DNA from: Escherichia phage PECP20
Sequence record: OQ873415.1
Reading direction: 5' to 3' (one strand)
DNA: 64,000 nucleotides
Shown here: positions 4,803 to 60,971 of the stretch, one piece after another
Position numbering within the stretch: the first letter of the stretch is position 1
How the letters are laid out: each line of letters begins with the position of its first letter
Translations under genes and position numbers: made by a program
The notes under the pieces: model-generated
What the model saw: the letters and a program-made list of their open reading frames with translations, nothing else
Told to the model about the DNA's origin: nothing
Databases searched by the model: none

Positions 4803-4970
4803 CTATAGTAAAAGTTGGGTTTCGTTCAATTGCTCTTCTGAACTTTCTGAAACCGGCAATTGTTGTACATAATTATAACAAGGACCAGGATGTGCTGGAC
4901 CTTTGTCTGTTTCAACAACCAATGCAGAATCGATTGGAGTTTTACAGACAACACAAATCTTATCTGACAT
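4803..4970 (-). CDS. small cysteine-containing protein (55 aa), late-expressed
   Basis: ATG at 4970 with SD GGAGG; CxxC near N-terminus (MSDKICVVCK...); own TATAAATA late promoter at 5000-5007 and terminator at 4749-4776; the plus-strand ORF 4766-4972 in the track is its antisense shadow. Confidence 0.55.
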   Translation of the reverse strand: MSDKICVVCKTPIDSALVVETDKGPAHPGPCYNYVQQLPVSESSEEQLNETQLLL

Positions 4971-4999
4971 GATTGCCTCCTAAGTTGAAATTACATATC

Positions 5000-5007
5000 T
5001 ATTTATA
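5000..5007 (-). promoter_or_regulatory. late promoter (TATAAATA on minus strand)
   Basis: Plus-strand TATTTATA at 5000-5007, about 30 nt upstream of the ATG at 4970. Confidence 0.45.
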
Positions 5008-5227
5008 CCACTCGCATGCACATATCGATACCCATATCTTTTGTATAAAAATACTCGTCGATATACCCAGCAAACTTCCCTTTAATATAAAGGACGTCTT
5101 CGCCACAAGGATGGTCTGCCAGGATACGAATATCCTGACGTCGTAGACGATACTTTTCCATTAAGAATTTAATTTCAGTTTCAAATTCTTCATCATTATT
5201 AAAGGCATCTTCAATTGAATAACGCAT
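5003..5227 (-). CDS. hypothetical protein (74 aa), uvsY.-1 position
   Basis: ORF whose ATG overlaps the uvsY stop (TAATG); same position as T4 uvsY.-1. Confidence 0.55.
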   Translation of the reverse strand: MRYSIEDAFNNDEEFETEIKFLMEKYRLRRQDIRILADHPCGEDVLYIKGKFAGYIDEYFYTKDMGIDMCMRVV

Positions 5228-5640
5228 TATTGCCCCGCTTCAAATTCTCGCATATCTTGAATATGTTTAAGTGCAAAACTACGAGACTTGACTGCATCAA
5301 GTGCACCACTACAGAACTCAAGTAAAATTCCCCAGTATTGTAAAGTAGTCTCTATTTTAAGCACATCTTTATCTGCAGCCAGGACAGTTTTCATTTCAGA
5401 TTTCTCATATCGGTCCATACTGAATTCATCACCATCACCTCGTCCCGAGTAGTAGTCTAATCTTGCTTTTAGAGCAGTTTTCTTCTGAGTCTCTATACGC
5501 AACATTTCTTTACGAATAAATGAGTGCTTACGTAGCCATTTGCTGTATAACTTAACATTATTCGCCGTCTCATATTGCAACTTTGTCGTATCAATAGCTA
5601 AGTCTGCGTCTAACTCTTCCTGTAAATCTTCCAGCTTCAT
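5227..5640 (-). CDS. uvsY: UvsY recombination mediator
   Basis: 137-aa product from the internal ATG at 5640 (MKLEDLQEEL...KLQYETANNV...YYSGRGDGDEFSMDRYEKSEMK...) matches T4 UvsY; the 164-aa track ORF is an upstream in-frame extension. Confidence 0.9.
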   Translation of the reverse strand: MKLEDLQEELDADLAIDTTKLQYETANNVKLYSKWLRKHSFIRKEMLRIETQKKTALKARLDYYSGRGDGDEFSMDRYEKSEMKTVLAADKDVLKIETTLQYWGILLEFCSGALDAVKSRSFALKHIQDMREFEAGQ

Positions 5641-5695
5641 AATGTTCTCTCTTTTAACTAATAATCTCCCGGCTGTATCGGAAGGACCTAAAACC

Positions 5696-5720
5696 ATTAT
5701 ACATAGGTTGCCTTGAAGCA
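5696..5720 (-). promoter_or_regulatory. MotA-dependent middle promoter for uvsY
   Basis: Minus strand TGCTTCA (plus 5714-5720), 12 nt, TATAAT (plus 5696-5701). Confidence 0.55.
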
Positions 5721-6119
5721 TTACACTCTATTGCTTGACGCTAACTGAAGTTTGATTTGTTCGATATCATCAGGGTTGTCTACGACCGAAAATCTAATCT
5801 CTACTATAACTGTATAGTCATCATATACTGGCGTTACACTTACAGAAAGTTTGTCGATGCGTGGCTCATAGTTACGAACAGCTGCCTGGATATTACGCTC
5901 AATCGTATTGGCTGTAAGTGGTGTCATGTTCTCGAAAAGTTCATCAACCAAATCGCATCCAAATTCAGGGTCGAAGGGGCGTGAGCCTTTTCTAGTTGTC
6001 ACTATACCAAGAAGACTATTTTTAATAGAACGAAGTCCTACAGAACGAGCAACGTCCTTGTTCCAATCCATACGCATTTCTGGGTCGATATCTGAATAAA
6101 GTTTATTGATATTAGACAT
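5721..6119 (-). CDS. 25: gp25 baseplate wedge subunit
   Basis: 132 aa, T4 gp25-like throughout (MSNINKLYSDIDPEMRMDWNKDV...). Confidence 0.92.
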   Translation of the reverse strand: MSNINKLYSDIDPEMRMDWNKDVARSVGLRSIKNSLLGIVTTRKGSRPFDPEFGCDLVDELFENMTPLTANTIERNIQAAVRNYEPRIDKLSVSVTPVYDDYTVIVEIRFSVVDNPDDIEQIKLQLASSNRV

Positions 6120-7545: not shown

Positions 7546-8714
7546 CAGTATTCCAACGTCCAGGATATCCTAACTTAAGCGTTAAATTATATCAAGATTA
7601 TTCGGCTTGGCAAGAAAATAGATACGTTGAACTCGCTGCAACAATAACAACTTTAACCATGCGAGATTCGCTATATGGAAGAAATGAAGGGATTCTTCAA
7701 TTTTATGACACTAAAAACATCCACACTAAAATGGATGGTAGGCAGATAGTCCAAATCTCTGTTTCAAATTCAAACACACCTCTCCAAGTTAGAACTCGAA
7801 TTTACGGATGTAGACATTATTCTGTGTCTGTGGACTCAAAAGGTGACAATATTATTGCAATTGAGCTTGGAACAATACATTCTATAGAGAACCTTAAATT
7901 TGGGCGTCCGTTCTTCCCGGACGCAGGCGAATCTATACGTGAAATGTTAGGTGTCATATATAAAGACCGTACGTTAATTACTCCGCCAATAAACACTATT
8001 AATGCTTATGTTCCTGATATTCCTTGGACAAGCACATTTGATGATTATTTGGCATATGTCAGAGAATTAGGACTTGCTACAGCGAGTGATAAGTTCGTAT
8101 TCGTATGGCAAGATATTTTAGGCGTAAACATGATTGACTACGATACTCTTATTGGTCAAGAAGGCATTAAGATGATTGTAGGTGAGCCAAATACTGTAGG
8201 TCAGTATATTCAAGAGCTTGAGTATCCATTAGTATGGGATTTTACCTGGATGACTAAAGCCAACCAATTTACAAGAGACCCTATTAAAAACGCCACAATA
8301 TTCGCCCATTCATTTTTAGATACATCTATTCCAGTTATTGTTACTGGCGACGGCGATAATGCTATTCTTGTGTCAAGATCCGGCGGATATTCCGAAATGA
8401 CCTATCGTAACGGATTTGAAGAAGCAAGTCGTCTTCAGACAATGGCTCAATACGACGGTTATGCTAAATGCACTACTACAGGTAATTTTAACATAACGCC
8501 TGCTACTAAAATTATATTTGTTGACCAAAAGAACCAATTCAAATCCGAATTTTACGTGGATGAAGTTATTCATGAGTTATCAAATAACAACTCACAAACT
8601 CATCTGTACATGTTTACCAACTCAATGGTGTTAGAACCTGTTAACCCAGTTAAGGTTAAAAATGAACTTAAATCTGATTCTACCTCTAAAGAAAATAATT
8701 CTACCACAGTCTAA
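7542..8714 (+). CDS. 27: gp27 baseplate hub subunit
   Basis: 390 aa; T4 gp27 length and position; ATGA overlap with gene 51. Confidence 0.9.
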
Positions 8715-20843: not shown

Positions 20844-21023
20844 TTATGCAACAACCTTTCCAAAACGAGAAGCATCATCTCGAAGAACTGCACGTGCTCT
20901 GCGCATGATCTTCTCAACTGTTTGATTAATACGAGAGTTCGACCCACGCTTGTATCCAGCGCGTTTAGAGGTACCATCAACTTTCTTTTCAACTGCTTTC
21001 TTTGCTTTAGCTTGTTTTGCCAT
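20844..21023 (-). CDS. small highly basic protein (59 aa)
   Basis: Hand-translated minus-strand ORF MAKQAKAKKAVEKKVDGTSKRAGYKRGSNSRINQTVEKIMRRARAVLRDDASRFGKVVA, ending 5 nt before the terminator hairpin; absent from the track because it is under 60 aa. Confidence 0.5.
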   Translation of the reverse strand: MAKQAKAKKAVEKKVDGTSKRAGYKRGSNSRINQTVEKIMRRARAVLRDDASRFGKVVA

Positions 21024-21286
21024 TATAAATTCTCTTTAAATGAAAATGCAGGACTTATTGACATTGCCTGCGCAAGCCCTCATGGGGAACATAGGTTTTG
21101 GATATTTAACGACAGGATAACCATAAACCCGTCATCATACCAACCACGACTTAGACAGATAACCTTTTTCTGACGCGTGATAGTACAAAATACATTCAAG
21201 AGGTACACCGTAAAACTGCCGGGGTCTTAAAACTATAATGATTCGCAAATCATTAATCAGACAATTCGACGGCTCCTCGATTTAAC

Positions 21287-21535
21287 TTACTTCAGGGTAA
21301 TAACAAAATGACGTACTGCTTTACGAGCTGCTGAAGCCAAAGGCTTAGCATATTTCAGTTCATCTTTTGCTTCCAGTTCAGCAGCCAGAGTAGCCTGAGC
21401 AGGATTCAGATGTTTGAAATATCGCAGGATTTCCAGTGCTTCGGCTTCAACATCAATTGAAGCGCCGTAGTTTTCGTGACCGTTATTCCATGCGTTGCGT
21501 TGCAGATCAAGAGCGTGTTGTAGTTGTTTAATCAT
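21287..21535 (-). CDS. rIII: rIII lysis-inhibition accessory protein
   Basis: 82 aa; MIKQLQHALDLQRNAWNNGHENYGASIDVEAEALEILRYFKHLNPAQ, T4 rIII-like. Confidence 0.9.
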   Translation of the reverse strand: MIKQLQHALDLQRNAWNNGHENYGASIDVEAEALEILRYFKHLNPAQATLAAELEAKDELKYAKPLASAARKAVRHFVITLK

Positions 21536-21651
21536 TTTAAATTCTCAATTCGAGATAATATTTAGTAGCCACGTTCGTCTGAATTTCACCTTCTTTCGAC
21601 AAGTCTCTCAGTTGTAGGCTACCGCTTAGAAGAGTGTTCTCTTCATATAGT

Positions 21652-21659
21652 TATTTATA
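21652..21659 (-). promoter_or_regulatory. late promoter (TATAAATA) upstream of rIII
   Basis: Plus-strand TATTTATA at 21652-21659, abutting the gene 31 stop. Confidence 0.45.
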
Positions 21660-21992
21660 TCACTTATAAAGACACGGAATAGCTTTATAGTGGCATGTTA
21701 CGAATTTCTGTTTAATTTCTTTAGGTTGTTTAAGTCCCAAAGCCACAAATGGATGTGGAACATTTCGAATTTGTCCAACTGGTAGTGGAGTCAAATCACC
21801 GACTTCAACAAAACCTTCAGGAACATCAGGACCTACAGAATGAACTACACATAGTTCAGGAACTTCACCTTGAACACGTTTACCAATCACAAGTCCTGAT
21901 TCGGTAACTTCTTCATCACCTGCTTGAGCGGGTTCAGAAACCAGAATGACATATTCACCAACAGCACGAATTGGGAGTTGTACTTCAGACAT
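21660..21992 (-). CDS. 31: gp31 co-chaperonin (GroES analogue)
   Basis: 110 aa; [60 protein letters not shown], near-identical to remembered T4 gp31. Confidence 0.95.
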
Positions 21993-22049
21993 CTTATTTC
22001 CTTGTTGTTTGACGATAGATTAATAATACCATACTATTCGTAAAGCATA

Positions 22050-22358
22050 TTACATAAGAAGCAAACGTTCGACCGGAGTACCATCAACCGAAATTACTTT
22101 ATCAAGGCGGAAAGAACGCCACTGACCTAACTTGGTATCGAATGCTCGAACTGATTCACGAGGTTCATAACGAACTTCTGTTGCCGGATTGTTATTTTCA
22201 TATTTGACTTCAAGTTCATCGCGCGAAGCAAACATAGTGCGTACATCACCGTTAGCCTTTTCAAATACAACACAATGAACGCCTACAGACAGAATAGTTT
22301 TAATACGTTCACGAAGAACCATAGTTTCTTGTTCAGTTAAAATCATATTATTCACCAC
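22050..22358 (-). CDS. hypothetical protein, 31.1 position (102 aa)
   Basis: ORF between cd and gene 31. Confidence 0.6.
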   Translation of the reverse strand: MVNNMILTEQETMVLRERIKTILSVGVHCVVFEKANGDVRTMFASRDELEVKYENNNPATEVRYEPRESVRAFDTKLGQWRSFRLDKVISVDGTPVERLLLM

Positions 22359-22929
22359 AAAAGTTTCGGATTTGTTCCCAATTCAGAGAACGAAGATTAT
22401 TACGAGAGTACTGAATTACTTCAATGCCAGCTTGTTTTAGAATGTCTGCCCAATTTTCAGGAGATCTGTCGTATAATTCTGCGTATACGACCTTTTTAAT
22501 ACCTGACTGCGTAATAGCTTTAGTACAATCAGGACATGGAGAAAGCGTCGTATATAACGTAGCACCTTCAATAGAATTACCTTTACGAGCGGCAAACAAA
22601 ATTGCATTCAATTCTGCATGGATTTCATTATTAGCAGACCATGCACTATGAGCAGCTCGATGTTCTTTGGCTAAAACAAAATTATCTACCCGTCCAAATG
22701 CTGTAGTGCCTTCTTTATGTCCAGCAACGATGACTGGGATTGGTTTATTCTTCAACCAACCATTTTCAGATGCATGTTCGCAACAGTTAACGCCACCTGC
22801 AGGTGAACCGTTATATCCAGTAGAGATAATGCGTCCATCTTTTTCAATGACGGCACCAACTTTCCATGAACAACATTTTGATTCTTGAGAAATCAGATAT
22901 GCAATCTGAAGGTATGTGCTAGCTTTCAT
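22348..22929 (-). CDS. cd: dCMP deaminase
   Basis: 193 aa; zinc motifs HAELNAI and SPCPDC; T4 Cd-like. Confidence 0.95.
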   Translation of the reverse strand: MKASTYLQIAYLISQESKCCSWKVGAVIEKDGRIISTGYNGSPAGGVNCCEHASENGWLKNKPIPVIVAGHKEGTTAFGRVDNFVLAKEHRAAHSAWSANNEIHAELNAILFAARKGNSIEGATLYTTLSPCPDCTKAITQSGIKKVVYAELYDRSPENWADILKQAGIEVIQYSRNNLRSLNWEQIRNFCGE

Positions 22930-23921
22930 TATTGAACCTTATTAATATAAGTTAACAGCTCTTTAGTTTGTTCCCAACTGATGCACGCATCGGTAACGGA
23001 AACGCCATAGGACATATTATCAGAAATTTTTTGATTTCCTTCATGTAGGAACGATTCTATCATAATTCCTTTGACCAAATCATTAGCTGCTAAATTTTTA
23101 CCAATACCAATTTGATTGCTATAATGCCCATCAGCGTTTGCATGGCTACAGTCAACCATTACATAATGATTCAGACCTACTGCCCTTGCTTTGTTAGAAG
23201 CTTCTTGAATATCAGAAGAATGATAGTTCGGACCGTTGGTCCCGCCACGCAATACGATATGCGTATTCTGATTACCTTCAGCTTCAACAATGCCTACAGT
23301 ACCATCGACGTCCATACCCATATACCGATGAGGCCAGGCAGCACTATACATCGCGTCTGTAGCTACTTTAATAGAACCATTGGTTGCGTTCTTGAAGCCT
23401 ACGCACATCGGTAGACCTGAAGCAATTTCACGATGTGTCTGACTTTCAGTCGTACGGGCGCCAATAGCAACCCATGAGAAAATACCAGAAAGATACTTAA
23501 TCGTGAATGGGTCTAATACTTCAGTTGCTAATGGAAGTCCCATACGTAGAAGTTTACGACACAATGTTCGTGCAACTATAAGACCGTGGTTCATATCAAA
23601 ACTTCCGTCAAGATATGGATCATTTACAAGACCTTTCCAACCTACGGTAGTTCGAGGCTTTTCAAAATAAACGCGCATCACTAACAGAACATTAGGAAGA
23701 CGAGTTTGAAGTTCAGCCAGACGTTTGCCGTATTCAACAGCAGCAATAGGGTCATGAATTGAACAAGGACCTACAACAATAAGTTTGCGTGGGTCTTCAC
23801 CGTTCATAATCGAATTAACTTGTTCGCGATGAGAAGCCACTTGTGATGCGTAAGCTTCCGACAAAGGAATAATCTCAGCCAGTTCTTTTGGAGAAATAAG
23901 TTTTCCGACGACAGGTAACAT
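22929..23921 (-). CDS. class-I DAHP synthase (3-deoxy-7-phosphoheptulonate synthase, AroG/F/H family) homologue
   Basis: 330 aa with AroG signature blocks VVGPCSIHD, MRVYFEKPRTTVGWKGL, AIGARTTESQTHRE, CVGFKN, IVLRGG, MVDCSHAN, GIMIESFLHEGNQ; stop overlaps the cd ATG; SD AAGGA. Confidence 0.8.
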   Translation of the reverse strand: MLPVVGKLISPKELAEIIPLSEAYASQVASHREQVNSIMNGEDPRKLIVVGPCSIHDPIAAVEYGKRLAELQTRLPNVLLVMRVYFEKPRTTVGWKGLVNDPYLDGSFDMNHGLIVARTLCRKLLRMGLPLATEVLDPFTIKYLSGIFSWVAIGARTTESQTHREIASGLPMCVGFKNATNGSIKVATDAMYSAAWPHRYMGMDVDGTVGIVEAEGNQNTHIVLRGGTNGPNYHSSDIQEASNKARAVGLNHYVMVDCSHANADGHYSNQIGIGKNLAANDLVKGIMIESFLHEGNQKISDNMSYGVSVTDACISWEQTKELLTYINKVQ

Positions 23922-24041
23922 AACAATCCTTAGGAGATATAAACAGATTCTGATTCAACAATACCTTTAACCGGATTAGACAGGCTAAGTTGGTAGTGCT
24001 CAGATTTATGACCATTCTCGATAGTAATGAGATAGCTCTCA

Positions 24042-24278
24042 TTATAGTGTTCCATATACTCGAGTTGCTTCAACAAGACCATCACTGCCTAATTTAAGAT
24101 TAGTAATTTGGTCACCATCTTTAGGATTAACGATTATGAGAAAAGAACGTGGAGATTCTTGAATAACTCGTAATGTTGCATCTTGGAAACGTTCAGACAC
24201 TTTATTGATGAGTGCTTGAGCAAATTCTTTTACTTTAATCTGAAATTCGTGTACTGTAATTGGGTTTTCACTTAGCAT
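24042..24278 (-). CDS. hypothetical protein (78 aa)
   Basis: ORF upstream of the DAHP synthase gene. Confidence 0.5.
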   Translation of the reverse strand: MLSENPITVHEFQIKVKEFAQALINKVSERFQDATLRVIQESPRSFLIIVNPKDGDQITNLKLGSDGLVEATRVYGTL

Positions 24279-24304
24279 TTCTATTTCCTCATTTTGGTAG
24301 AGTC

Positions 24305-24334
24305 ATCATATCACAACTCTACGGTGTTGTAAAC
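24305..24334 (-). promoter_or_regulatory. early promoter
   Basis: Minus strand GTTTAC (plus 24329-24334), 18 nt, TATGAT. Confidence 0.4.
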
Positions 24335-24610
24335 TTAAATTGCAAAACATTTAATTTCTTGTGAATCGAAATCAACTTCGCACTGAATTACTAGTTCAGC
24401 ATCAAGTCCAAACACAACAATCACATGAGCCGAGCTGGGCAACAGTGTAACGGACACAGAATCCACTTGGTCAGGCACCAGCGTATTCAAAACGTAGAGT
24501 AGTTCAGAGTGGATCTTAAGCTCTGTAGCCGTGTCCAGCTTATCAAAGAAATGATTTGCGATAATCTGACTAAAAACGACCTTTACAATTTCAGAATATT
24601 TAGGGAACAT
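24335..24610 (-). CDS. hypothetical protein (91 aa)
   Basis: ORF in the cd.x-equivalent cluster. Confidence 0.5.
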   Translation of the reverse strand: MFPKYSEIVKVVFSQIIANHFFDKLDTATELKIHSELLYVLNTLVPDQVDSVSVTLLPSSAHVIVVFGLDAELVIQCEVDFDSQEIKCFAI

Positions 24611-24617
24611 AATTACC

Positions 24618-24842
24618 TCAGTGTACAGTATTTACTTTAACTCGAACAACAAATTGCTCGGTCGGTTCGCCTACAGGAACAAACTCTACATGATATTCAC
24701 CTTTGTAACGAGTATTCAGATCATTACGAATTCCTGCGAGTTTGTTGATTAATGTAGGACTCATATTAAGTCCCACTAGTTTACGAAGCATTTTGTATGC
24801 TTCATCTTCGATTTCATGATGTTTATCGTACATAATTTTCAT
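24618..24842 (-). CDS. hypothetical protein (74 aa)
   Basis: ORF in the cd.x-equivalent cluster. Confidence 0.5.
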   Translation of the reverse strand: MKIMYDKHHEIEDEAYKMLRKLVGLNMSPTLINKLAGIRNDLNTRYKGEYHVEFVPVGEPTEQFVVRVKVNTVH

Positions 24843-25013
24843 TTAACCATTCAATTGCCTGGTCGACGTTATCAAATATACCACCGTCCAAACGTTCTTC
24901 ATGCTCATAGTCCAGCACATCAATACCGAACTGTCCATTTACTAAAGGCCAGGCTACAAACAAATATTCTTTATGATGTTCGATGGCCTCAATCACTTCA
25001 TATAATCGTTTCA

Positions 25014-25014
<1 letters not shown>
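24823..25014 (-). CDS. hypothetical acidic protein (63 aa)
   Basis: ORF coupled (ATGA) downstream of pseT. Confidence 0.5.
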
Positions 25015-26100
<1,086 letters not shown>

Positions 26101-59870: not shown

Positions 59871-60971
59871 TTACGCTGTGAAGATTTTATCCCACATCGC
59901 AACAACTGCATCTCGGTTATACTTCTTCCATACGGCTTCAGCACGTTTAACTCGAGCTTCGTATGTGTCAGTGAATTCTAATACAGCTTTTGTGTAAAGC
60001 GCAACTACTTCTTTCTTAGGAGTAGAGGAATCAATTTCTACACGCACAGTATCTGGGTCATATTCGAATGTCGCGTGCGGATAATCCTTAAAAACTAACT
60101 GAATCACAGGGACACCTTTAGAGATGGCTTCAATAGAACTATTCTCTACCGTACCCGTGTCAGGACACGTATTGATAAGTGCTTTAGCTGTTTTAAGACG
60201 TTCCATGATTTCACTGTGTGGAGCATCAATAATAACAGGATACTTAGCCGGTGGTGCCCATTTACTAGGACAGTATCCTGCACCATTTTCGCCTAGTGCT
60301 TTAATCGCTTCAAGAGCAACATCAGTACGACGCATTTTAGTGTCATAACGTTGTGCACTAATAATCAGATCAGTCGCCGGAAGAACTTCAGGTTTCTCAT
60401 TCAAACAAATAACCGGATAATCTTCGGCTTCAAACAACGGATTTGCTCGCCAATAATCATAATCAATTTTGTCAGTCAGACCTGAAGTCATATAACAATA
60501 TTTGCGTTCAAATTCACGGAAGGCTTTAGTAGGAGCATAACTCTTACCACCGTTCTTATGAATTTGAATAGTCTGGTCCCAAATTTGAACAATACCACGA
60601 GATACCGGTTCAAATGGTGTTGCCATAAAATTCTTATGAACTTTAGAGAGACCTGCGTCTTTAATTGCCTGAACGGTTAGTTTGGTCGGTTCCATTGTAA
60701 CAACGAAATCGTACTCATTAATGCCGGCTAGTTCAACAATCTTACGAGCCATAGTATAACTCATACCTAGACTGAATTTAGTCAGATGACCAACAGGATG
60801 ATGATTAACCTTCCAATCACCAAATGTGTCATTATCAAAACCGATATAATCAATATCGGCACCGATAGAAACTAAATATTTCAACACATTTAAATGTACT
60901 GCTTCAAGACCACCTTGTACACGTTCAGGATTAAATGGGACTGCACGAGATGGGATAAACATAACTTTCAT
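59871..60971 (-). CDS. GT-B fold glycosyltransferase (GT4-like); candidate DNA sugar-modification enzyme
   Basis: 366 aa; N-terminal MKVMFIPSRAVPFNPERVQGGLEAVHLNVLKYL and C-terminal ...TCPDTGTVENSSIEAISKGVPVI resemble the GT4 donor-binding region; no resemblance to T4 alpha- or beta-glucosyltransferase; located between rIIA.1 and gene 39. Confidence 0.65.
   Translation of the reverse strand: MKVMFIPSRAVPFNPERVQGGLEAVHLNVLKYLVSIGADIDYIGFDNDTFGDWKVNHHPVGHLTKFSLGMSYTMARKIVELAGINEYDFVVTMEPTKLTVQAIKDAGLSKVHKNFMATPFEPVSRGIVQIWDQTIQIHKNGGKSYAPTKAFREFERKYCYMTSGLTDKIDYDYWRANPLFEAEDYPVICLNEKPEVLPATDLIISAQRYDTKMRRTDVALEAIKALGENGAGYCPSKWAPPAKYPVIIDAPHSEIMERLKTAKALINTCPDTGTVENSSIEAISKGVPVIQLVFKDYPHATFEYDPDTVRVEIDSSTPKKEVVALYTKAVLEFTDTYEARVKRAEAVWKKYNRDAVVAMWDKIFTA

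Follow-up and report, generated by a model that had tools for sequence, protein, structure and literature searches.

An AroF-like DAHP synthase with a rewritten effector pocket in Mosigvirus coliphages: a candidate feedback-insensitive enzyme

DAHP synthase is the flux-controlling entry into the shikimate pathway, and the bacterial host governs it through feedback inhibition. The DAHP synthases share a Pfam superfamily and the chemistry of PEP-aldol condensation with KdsA of Escherichia coli. Other phage auxiliary metabolic genes rewire central carbon flow, for example talC (transaldolase) and CP12 of the cyanophages.

The inhibitor site of DAHP synthase comprises nine residues, among which Q151 and S180 hold the main chain of the inhibitor (PMC9529685; pocket positions follow AroG numbering unless stated otherwise). 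Enzymes which have been engineered or selected for feedback resistance include AroG P150L and S180F, both fully resistant (PMC9529685), AroG F209A and D146N, AroF lacking Ile11 (PMC10729320), and Corynebacterium glutamicum AroF altered at E154/P155 (PMC9529685, PMC10729320). Among T4-like phages the DAHP synthase gene itself is already known, being annotated in GenBank as "phospho-2-dehydro-3-deoxyheptonate aldolase" and forming PHROG 5045; the gene described here does not differ from this catalogued one and its novelty is low. Full-text searches of the literature turned up papers on phage genomes which mention the domain in passing (PMC8022965, PMC11845039), and no enzymology or functional characterisation of a phage DAHP synthase. 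The putative deregulation of the enzyme would be of moderate novelty.

The DNA analysed (the window) is a stretch of 64,000 nucleotides from Escherichia phage PECP20 (OQ873415.1), a member of the genus Mosigvirus (RB69-like viruses). A first-pass annotation made from the letters alone had recognized in it a class I DAHP synthase of 330 amino acids. The open reading frame was borne out and lies on the minus strand (Table 1), and all seven of the quoted motifs are present in its translation (VVGPCSIHD, MRVYFEKPRTTVGWKGL, GARTTESQTHRE, CVGFKN, IVLRGG, MVDCSHAN and GIMIESFLHEGNQ). The gene encodes a type I-alpha DAHP synthase. Its product exceeds the cut-offs of the NCBIfam equivalog TIGR00034 (aroFGH; 427.7 bits against 173.2) and of the AroF-type subfamily model PRK12755 (455 bits against 343), and the suggested Pfam search returned DAHP_synth_1 (PF00793) at 5e-75 (252 bits; threshold 25.5). 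The PHROG 5045 profile matches over the full length (3e-182), several Mosigvirus phages carry annotated proteins which are 100% identical, and the closest solved structure by sequence is that of E. coli AroF (6AGM; 5e-105, 51% identity over the full length).

Alignment to E. coli AroG, which had also been proposed, revealed no loss of catalytic residues. The metal ligands C53, H260, E289 and D311 correspond to AroG Cys61, His268, Glu302 and Asp326, and are invariant in 25 of 25 sequences of the phage clade; the KPRT motif is found at K88-T91 (KPRTT in the sequence); and the residues which bind PEP and E4P (AroG R92, K97, R99, T100, R165, K186 and R234) are all kept. None of the 15 residues for metal, PEP and E4P varies across the 25 phage-clade and 98 bacterial sequences. 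An AlphaFold model built with a 60-sequence alignment (pLDDT 92; a single-sequence run with pLDDT 36 was discarded) contains the (beta/alpha)8 barrel with its N-terminal helices, and superimposes in Foldseek on the DAHP synthases of Neisseria meningitidis and E. coli (4HSO, 1KFL, 8E0Z) with a TM score of 0.96 and an rmsd of 1.4 Å. The phage protein thus shares with E. coli AroF the metal ligands, KPRT motif, substrate residues and barrel, and differs from it in having shorter loops after beta7 and beta8 and a shorter C-terminus. It is best read as a catalytically competent, metal-dependent enzyme. The regulatory hairpin beta6a/beta6b, also shared with AroF, is still present in the model (strands 198-203 and 209-214), an observation which counts against a feedback-insensitive enzyme.

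Because DAHP synthase is homologous to KDO8P synthase, with which it has the fold and the Pfam family in common, the first-pass annotation had offered as its second reading an enzyme recruited for sugar-phosphate metabolism linked to DNA hypermodification; such an enzyme would be KDO8P-synthase-like and join PEP to arabinose-5-phosphate or to some other sugar phosphate. Mosigvirus phages do make arabinose-5-phosphate. The sequence argues strongly against this proposal, and we consider it very improbable: BLASTP against E. coli KdsA was not significant (E = 0.24), the NCBIfam scan returned no KDO8P family while the DAHP equivalog passes, and the protein carries the E4P-type KPRT, with all the DAHP-synthase substrate residues invariant, where KdsA has KANRS. 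Its Cys-His-Glu-Asp site is metal-dependent as in the DAHP synthases. Furthermore, the arabinosylation pathway as published is complete in the absence of this gene, and RB69 arabinosylates its DNA though it lacks it.

Table 1. Features of the DAHP synthase locus (positions in the window)
Feature	Position	Strand	Remarks
cd (dCMP deaminase) CDS	22348..22929	-	ATG overlaps the DAHP synthase stop
Direct repeat (19 nt, imperfect), right copy	22914..22932		Start of cd
DAHP synthase CDS, type I-alpha, AroF-like	22929..23921	-	ATG start, 330 aa
1.1-kb cassette (cd.2 fragment and DAHP synthase)	22933..24026		In window, absent from RB69
Shine-Dalgarno-like TAAGGA	23927..23932	-	5 nt upstream of DAHP synthase ATG; read from sequence
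51-aa ORF	23930..24085	-	Covers DUF7320 positions 43-76; C-terminal piece of a divergent second cd.2
Direct repeat (19 nt, imperfect), left copy	24027..24045		cd.2 stop and cd-start relic
Resident cd.2 homologue (DUF7320)	24042..24278	-	First gene past the promoter-like site
Sigma-70-like site TTTACA-17-TATGAT, extended TG	24305..24333	-	Between cd.3 and cd.2; consensus match

The gene stops within the start codon of its downstream neighbour, the two being joined in the sequence TAATG (DAHP synthase TAA, 22931-22929; cd ATG, 22929-22927). This overlap had been noticed earlier, and the identification of the neighbour as dCMP deaminase and the notion of translational coupling were likewise judged right; the same arrangement is present in L016. 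On the other side, the TAA of the Shine-Dalgarno-like TAAGGA doubles as the stop codon of the 51-aa ORF, and in phage Mizar a ribosome-binding site is annotated at the corresponding place. RB69 aligns to positions 21000-22932 and 24027-26000 of the window, skipping a cassette which is bounded by the two copies of the 19-nt repeat (16 of 19 nucleotides identical) and with which the cd.2 fragment came in. In T4 this interval holds cd.1-cd.5 and no DAHP synthase, in agreement with the earlier statement that T4 has no such gene here. T4 does possess an annotated early promoter at the corresponding cd.3/cd.2 position, and from this positional match the sigma-70-like site is likely to be the start of a cd.2 - DAHP synthase - cd transcript; as a class such sites were no more numerous in the sequence than expected by chance (14 found, 16.5 expected from shuffled sequence). 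No terminator-like sites were found on the minus strand between this site and cd. We infer that the DAHP synthase is expressed early.

DAHP synthase is annotated in approximately 140 GenBank records of Mosigvirus, and homologs occur in 212 phage records, a few of which are mislabelled bacterial contigs. Two sets of matches were rejected as phage homologs: the aroF matches of "Acinetobacter phage MD-2021a" come from bacterial contigs on which cobS and cobT lie nearby, and the human-faecal "Bacteriophage sp." scaffolds, whose phage origin is putative, carry a different subfamily. The gene occupies one and the same slot, between pseT and cd, in Mosigvirus, Marfavirus, Bragavirus, Winklervirus, Kagamiyamavirus and a metagenomic T4-like contig. 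The phage proteins were monophyletic in 30 of 30 neighbour-joining bootstraps and grouped with enterobacterial AroF. As to the closest relatives, a question raised at the outset, the identical proteins are those of other Mosigvirus phages, and the phage clade is sister to enterobacterial AroF. RB69 and T4 lack the cassette, and the proposal of an acquired gene is borne out. The composition of the gene is fully ameliorated, with a GC content of 41% (GC3 29%) compared with 52% (50%) for E. coli aroF.

RB69 thrives without the gene, as do several further members of Mosigvirus, so that any benefit it brings must be conditional. These gene-less genomes, and the truncated cd.2 relic which adjoins the gene, might indicate a passenger in a hyperplastic region which has lost its function and is decaying. 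The gene is, however, under purifying selection (dN/dS of 0.10 among Mosigvirus phages and of 0.13-0.31 when genera are compared), its catalytic residues are invariant in at least 25 cluster representatives, its frame is intact in approximately 140 genomes and its position is conserved in several genera. With selection and invariant catalytic residues against it, decay is effectively refuted and we give it next to no credence.

The catalytic site is untouched, and it is the effector pocket that has been rewritten, at the classical sites of feedback resistance. An unbiased scan for alignment columns which separate the 25 phage-clade sequences from the 98 nearest bacterial ones yielded only seven of 329, all of them inside or adjoining the Tyr/Phe inhibitor pocket. 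Four (Q151, D155, S180 and F209) fall within the nine-residue inhibitor site (hypergeometric p ~9e-6), and P150 is a fifth. The changes are P150 to I, Q151 to K, D155 to G, L156 to I, S180 to P, F209 to Y and T223 to A, which give the phage residues I141, K142, G146, I147, P171, Y200 and A214, respectively; in E. coli AroF the effector contacts P151, Q152, S181 and F210 stand where the phage protein has I141, K142, P171 and Y200. The N-terminus, the lid of this pocket, is approximately 9-11 residues shorter than in E. coli AroF, with the equivalents of AroF N8 and AroG D6/D7 gone; ahead of the position of AroG L16 the phage proteins have 5-9 residues, versus at least 13 in every bacterial relative. 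An unrelated virus, Aeromonas phage HJ05, has undergone independent changes at the same pocket positions, S180P included.

With the laboratory-resistant enzymes the phage protein shares changes at P150, S180, F209 and the N-terminal segment, as well as an intact active site. They differ in extent, since the former carry one or two substitutions whereas the phage clade has fixed seven together with a truncation and has conserved them over a deep divergence; furthermore, D146, mutated in AroG D146N, is unaltered in the phage enzyme. With the feedback pocket rewritten, the enzyme is probably free of the normal brake of its host, and inhibition by Tyr, Phe and Trp would have been lost. The first of the two original readings, an auxiliary metabolic gene perhaps escaping host feedback control, is accordingly the one which we favour on the strength of the intact catalytic residues and the altered pocket and lid. 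In its full form, that of an active DAHP synthase which is expressed early, is insensitive to feedback and is an accessory of the phage, we hold it with modest confidence, as somewhat the better bet.

One alternative is that this is an ordinary copy of AroF, still regulated by aromatic amino acids, which profits the phage through enzyme dosage after host shut-off, the pocket changes being neutral or tuning affinity. The AroF-type subfamily model is passed, the hairpin, D146 and L179 are kept, and phage G202 aligns with AroF G212 (AroG 211), the Gly of Tyr-type enzymes at the position of Tyr/Phe selectivity. Hence the protein belongs to the Tyr-sensitive AroF subtype by its subfamily HMM and selectivity residue; it does not by its effector-contact residues and N-terminal segment (N8, I11). 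Pocket positions also vary widely across the family. We had considered Q151 and S180 to be invariant in cellular enzymes, which proved true only of the nearest relatives: among 150 representatives of the wider family (clustered at 50%) position 151 is Q in 85 and position 180 is P in 22. This variation lowers our confidence in deregulation, since an altered pocket is not unusual where the positions are naturally variable and is, on its own, no proof of insensitivity. Against ordinary regulation, both holders of the inhibitor main chain are replaced, the acidic and Asn residues of the N-terminus are absent, P150 and F209 are altered, and at several such sites one substitution abolishes the inhibition of AroG or AroF. 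Moreover, the nearest bacterial relatives keep Q151 in 98 of 98 sequences, and S180 and F209 each in 97 of 98. We regard an ordinarily regulated enzyme as distinctly unlikely.

A further observation which counts against the favoured reading is that the pocket segment LDPFTIKYL is near-invariant within the phage clade, where it is more conserved than in bacteria. The pattern resembles that of a site constrained by a new role, for instance the binding of another ligand or a structural lock, more than that of a site simply lost. The effector site may have been retuned to an anionic intermediate of the pathway such as chorismate or prephenate, to a phage-specific metabolite or to a nucleotide, with regulation that suits the infected cell. 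The seven pocket residues and DPFTIKY are almost invariant though members of the clade are only 53-63% identical, the change of Q to K and the loss of the acidic N-terminus render the site more cationic, and the hairpin and the helices which build the site are retained. Such a ligand is, however, purely hypothetical; the invariance could equally stem from a need to lock the enzyme in its active state or from packing at the subunit interface, and the position of K214, a Phe contact in AroG, drifts freely. Retuning to another ligand appears unlikely to us. A broader version, in which the AroF pocket has been turned into either a site for another signal, such as one of these intermediates or a metabolite of the infected cell, or a built-in lock, would make these proteins a virus-specific regulatory class, possibly tied to the carbon demand of phages with arabinosylated DNA; we advance it tentatively, as a minority view.

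In a last alternative the product is irrelevant and the enzyme serves as a sink for E4P (and PEP), reshaping pentose-phosphate flux in phages whose arabinosylated DNA requires large amounts of ribulose-5-phosphate (Ru5P). The arabinosyl-5-hydroxycytosine pathway of Mosigvirus, which comprises 5hodCMP synthase, A5P isomerase and arabinosyltransferases, draws on Ru5P (PMC13326640), and the window encodes an orthologue of arabinosyltransferase 2. Most of the genera and phages bearing DAHP synthase also encode the arabinose-5-phosphate isomerase (Mosigvirus, Kagamiyamavirus, Winklervirus, Bragavirus, Enterobacter and Erwinia phages, KLB31 and SdyM_006). Strict co-occurrence was nevertheless not observed: arabinosylation or the isomerase occurs in the absence of a DAHP synthase in RB69, in approximately 57 T4-like phages of Acinetobacter and in some of Yersinia, while some 25 Klebsiella phages (Marfavirus) have the synthase and Klebsiella matches to the isomerase number at most three. 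The overlap may reflect shared ancestry, and by general reasoning from the non-oxidative pentose-phosphate scheme a drain on E4P wastes an intermediate which yields pentose. The link with arabinosylation is broad, neither necessary nor sufficient, and confounded by ancestry, which leaves the sink as a minor and quite improbable rival.

Under the favoured reading of a feedback-insensitive enzyme, the course of events would be as follows. An enterobacterial, Tyr-sensitive AroF-type enzyme entered a T4-like phage clade, where it has long resided, in Mosigvirus on a 1.1-kb cassette in a variable slot upstream of cd. It would be transcribed early, probably from the promoter upstream of cd.2, translated in coupling with cd, and would convert PEP and erythrose-4-phosphate to DAHP. 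The lost N-terminal segment is the one which closes the pocket from the neighbouring subunit; with it gone and the pocket rewritten, Tyr, Phe and Trp may cease to inhibit. Carbon would then flow into the shikimate pathway whatever the aromatic amino-acid pools, even after the shut-off of host transcription, and may sustain phage production through a supply of aromatic amino acids and of cofactors derived from chorismate. The gene is accessory rather than essential, and we infer some physiological benefit from it to the phage.

Like cyanophage talC and CP12, this would be a host-derived enzyme of central metabolism, employed in infection and regulated unlike the host copy. It differs from them in standing at the entry to the shikimate pathway and in having hosts among the Enterobacterales. 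Were the enzyme ordinarily regulated, it would merely be an annotated accessory gene. If deregulation is true, evolution would have supplied an optimised, resistant type I-alpha enzyme, with seven substitutions and a truncation, for strains which produce aromatic compounds. Mosigvirus phages which are near-isogenic but differ in whether they carry the 1.1-kb cassette would constitute a clean natural experiment on what a lytic phage gains from the supply of chorismate and aromatics, and virulent coliphages would be seen to override amino-acid feedback in biosynthesis, beyond nucleotide metabolism.

The 330-aa ORF of the first-pass annotation was recovered in the ORF listing with an ATG start, and each of the motifs quoted for it occurs in the translation. 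The protein matches the Pfam profile DAHP_synth_1 (5e-75), the NCBIfam equivalog TIGR00034 aroFGH (427.7 bits, cut-off 173), the NCBIfam subfamily PRK12755 (455 bits, cut-off 343) and PHROG 5045 'phospho-2-dehydro-3-deoxyheptonate aldolase' (3e-182), and its identity as a DAHP synthase is practically certain. The downstream ORF is indeed cd, the dCMP deaminase gene (Pfam dCMP_cyt_deam_1, 1.6e-26; PHROG 174), whose ATG overlaps the DAHP synthase stop in the sequence TAATG. The gene identification and its context had both been correct.

Features of the DAHP synthase locus and of the arabinosyltransferase ORF in the window
Feature	Position	Strand	Remarks
cd	22348-22929	-	dCMP deaminase
DAHP synthase gene	22929-23921	-	330 aa; TAA stop at 22931-22929
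Shine-Dalgarno TAAGGA		-	5 nt 5' of the DAHP synthase ATG; seen in the sequence
Cassette	22933-24026		1094 bp; between the segments aligned with RB69
19-nt direct repeat	22914-22932 and 24027-24045		imperfect, 16/19 identical; bounds the cassette; cd.2-stop/cd-start junction
51-aa ORF	23930-24085	-	inside the cassette; DUF7320 positions 43-76 (1.3e-6)
Promoter-like site	24333-24305	-	TTTACA-17-TATGAT, extended TG; between cd.3 and cd.2
Arabinosyltransferase ORF	59871-60971	-	366 aa; between rIIA and topoisomerase gene 39

As an annotation the phage gene is already known, and its own novelty is consequently low. Escherichia phages CCU7 and CEV1 match this region at 99.5% identity, and many further Mosigvirus (RB69-like T-even) phages do so at 98-99%. 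Homologues were found by tblastn in 212 phage records (139 at ≥95% identity), many of them already labelled DAHP synthase, 'aroF' or aldolase. Our literature search for enzymology or genetics of the phage enzyme returned passing mentions only, of ORF 64 in phiC120 (PMC8022965) and of an entry among the auxiliary metabolic genes of Klebsiella phage KLB31 (PMC11845039); the gene is thus catalogued but functionally uncharacterised. The aroF records of 'Acinetobacter phage MD-2021a' (e.g. CAKLQH020000056.1) have cobS, cobT and phosphatase genes as neighbours, which suggests bacterial contigs wrongly labelled as phage.

On the minus strand the genes run in the order pseT, three small ORFs (cd.4-like, unnamed and cd.3), cd.2 (DUF7320), the 51-aa ORF, the DAHP synthase gene, cd, 31.1 (WYL_2), gene 31 and rIII. 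T4 lacks the DAHP synthase gene, as had been stated, and cd.1 fills the slot before cd. It is also missing from RB69, the type Mosigvirus, whose alignment covers 21000-22932 and 24027-26000 of the window. RB69 has just one copy of the 19-nt repeat; through such a repeat the cassette could be acquired or precisely excised. Directly after the intact cd.2 comes the 51-aa ORF, a C-terminal piece of another, divergent cd.2 copy; the Shine-Dalgarno sequence of the DAHP synthase gene includes the stop codon of this ORF. Since the cassette contains this fragment, and cd.2 precedes the DAHP synthase gene in Marfavirus and Winklervirus, it looks to have been imported from another T4-like phage with that gene order. 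The same pseT-cd interval carries the gene in Marfavirus PWKp18, Bragavirus PM2, Winklervirus X20, Kagamiyamavirus EcS1 and a metagenomic T4-like contig, adjoining cd or one to two small ORFs away; in the metagenomic contig it likewise overlaps the cd start. The cassette is present in ca. 139 records, and a junction query revealed an unbroken cd.2-cd junction in 11 Mosigvirus records (among them RB69, JK36, JK42, moha, mar005P1 and ECO111 5-P), which makes the gene accessory.

The promoter-like site lies at the place corresponding to an annotated T4 early promoter, and no terminator-like sites were seen on the minus strand between it and cd, from which we infer that the DAHP synthase gene is co-transcribed early with cd. 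The cd gene of RB69 (7743-8252 of its record) is annotated 24 codons shorter at the 3' end, despite DNA that aligns with the window cd without large gaps. Possible causes are a frameshift, a premature stop, or an error in the sequencing of the old RB69 record, where such errors are known to split other genes (PMC13326640).

Among 120 database homologues the 24 cluster representatives of phage type, which share 55-98% identity with the window protein, make up one clade in 30/30 NJ bootstraps, and this clade groups with enterobacterial AroF. The base composition of the gene is fully phage-like (41% GC and 29% GC3, where E. coli aroF has 52% and 50%). Comparison with phage Mizar gave a dN/dS of 0.10, and comparisons between genera gave 0.13-0.31, with dS near saturation. 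The simplest history is a single old capture of an AroF-type gene, followed by a long stay in, and exchange among, T4-like phages of Enterobacterales.

The window protein is 47% identical to E. coli AroG, 51% to AroF and 44% to AroH. Alignment with these three enzymes located all of the metal ligands (AroG numbering here and below) (C61, H268, E302, D326) and PEP/E4P residues (R92, K97, P98, R99, T100, E143, G163, A164, R165, K186, R234), which are invariant across 25 phage-clade sequences. An AlphaFold model from a 60-sequence alignment (pLDDT 92, pTM 0.92) superimposes on the N. meningitidis and E. coli DAHP synthases with a TM score of 0.96 and rmsd of 1.4 Å, and keeps the beta6a/beta6b hairpin. 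Judged from sequence and model, the protein is very probably an active enzyme, and is predicted with high confidence to make DAHP from PEP and E4P.

The first-pass annotation had also entertained, in view of the homology to KDO8P synthase, an enzyme of sugar-phosphate metabolism linked to DNA hypermodification, citing the glycosyltransferase at 59871-60971. Similarity to E. coli KdsA is not significant (E = 0.24), and the protein carries the motif KPRT where KDO8P synthases have KANRS. The cited 366-aa ORF gave no Pfam match and hit PHROG 8302 'unknown function'; its product shares 99% identity with RB69p003, which has been assigned as beta-arabinosyltransferase 2 in the modification of DNA with arabinosyl-5-hydroxycytosine (PMC13326640). 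In Mosigvirus DNA, 5-hydroxycytosine is arabosylated with a sugar derived from Ru5P via phage arabinose-5-phosphate isomerase, kinase/uridylyltransferase and phosphatase (PMC13326640). This pathway needs neither DAHP nor KDO8P synthase, and RB69 modifies its DNA without the gene; the proposal is not supported. A flux link, with DAHP synthase acting as an E4P sink tied to arabinosylation, is of low probability. The isomerase occurs in 275 phage records covering most DAHP-synthase-bearing genera, and the genus ranges largely overlap, except that Marfavirus has the synthase alone, and RB69 and the Acinetobacter phages have the isomerase alone. Fifty-seven Acinetobacter phages have the isomerase without a phage-type DAHP synthase, and Klebsiella gave at most three isomerase matches versus 25 phages with DAHP synthase. 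The overlap is real, yet neither necessary nor sufficient, and may have arisen through common descent.

The regulatory parts of the protein are remodelled. Its N-terminus is 9-11 residues shorter than those of AroF, AroG and AroH, without equivalents of AroG D6/D7 and AroF N8; 5-9 residues precede the AroG-L16 position in phage-clade proteins, compared with at least 13 in 98/98 bacterial relatives. Alignment columns were called discriminating where ≥90% of the phage clade shared one residue, ≥85% of bacterial relatives another, and <5% of the latter had the phage residue. Only 7 of 329 columns qualified, namely AroG P150 (I in the phage clade), Q151 (K), D155 (G), L156 (I), S180 (P), F209 (Y) and T223 (A), the first of which is the classical aroG(fbr) site. 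Four of the seven belong to the inhibitor-site residues M147, Q151, D155, L179, S180, F209, S211, V212 and K214 (PMC9529685), the chance of at least four falling in this nine-residue set being ~9e-6. The inhibitor main chain is bound by Q151/Q152 and S180/S181, D155 forms a stabilising salt bridge, and P150L and S180F abolish inhibition (PMC9529685); AroF minus Ile11 is feedback-resistant (PMC10729320). The DAHP synthase of Aeromonas phage HJ05 (79 kb, unrelated and non-T4-like) is 38% identical with catalytic residues intact, and has its own changes at the same pocket positions (P150A, Q151H, D155P, S180P, F209V), which may represent convergent deregulation. This 388-aa protein (4899-6062 of the HJ05 record) is labelled 'hypothetical protein'. 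Together, the shortened N-terminus, the pocket-centred columns, the known resistance sites and the HJ05 parallels indicate that the phage-clade enzyme would, with somewhat better than even probability, no longer be inhibited by aromatic amino acids.

In 150 proteins retrieved from 1.84 billion cluster representatives, the catalytic residues are near-invariant and the pocket is variable (Q151 is Q in 85/150 and S180 is P in 22/150), so that the phage signature is distinctive only against an AroF-type ancestry. The top matches in that library were proteins of 730-800 aa, probably eukaryotic, with two tandem DAHP synthase domains; one of these proteins has lost catalytic motifs from one domain. 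Within the phage clade, whose members are just 53-63% identical, the LDPFTIKYL segment, P171, Y200 and A214 are nearly invariant, and the segment varies less than its bacterial counterpart. This suggests, as a rival reading, that the new pocket serves a separate purpose, such as binding a different ligand, locking the active conformation, or interface packing.

An auxiliary metabolic gene, perhaps free of host feedback, is the favoured reading, the catalytic core being frozen and the pocket and N-terminal lid replaced. There is about an even chance that the gene is selected for because it supplies aromatic amino acids or products of chorismate. What is added here is a testable prediction: because its effector pocket and lid have been exchanged around a frozen core, the AroF-derived enzyme of this T4-like phage clade should ignore Tyr, Phe and Trp.
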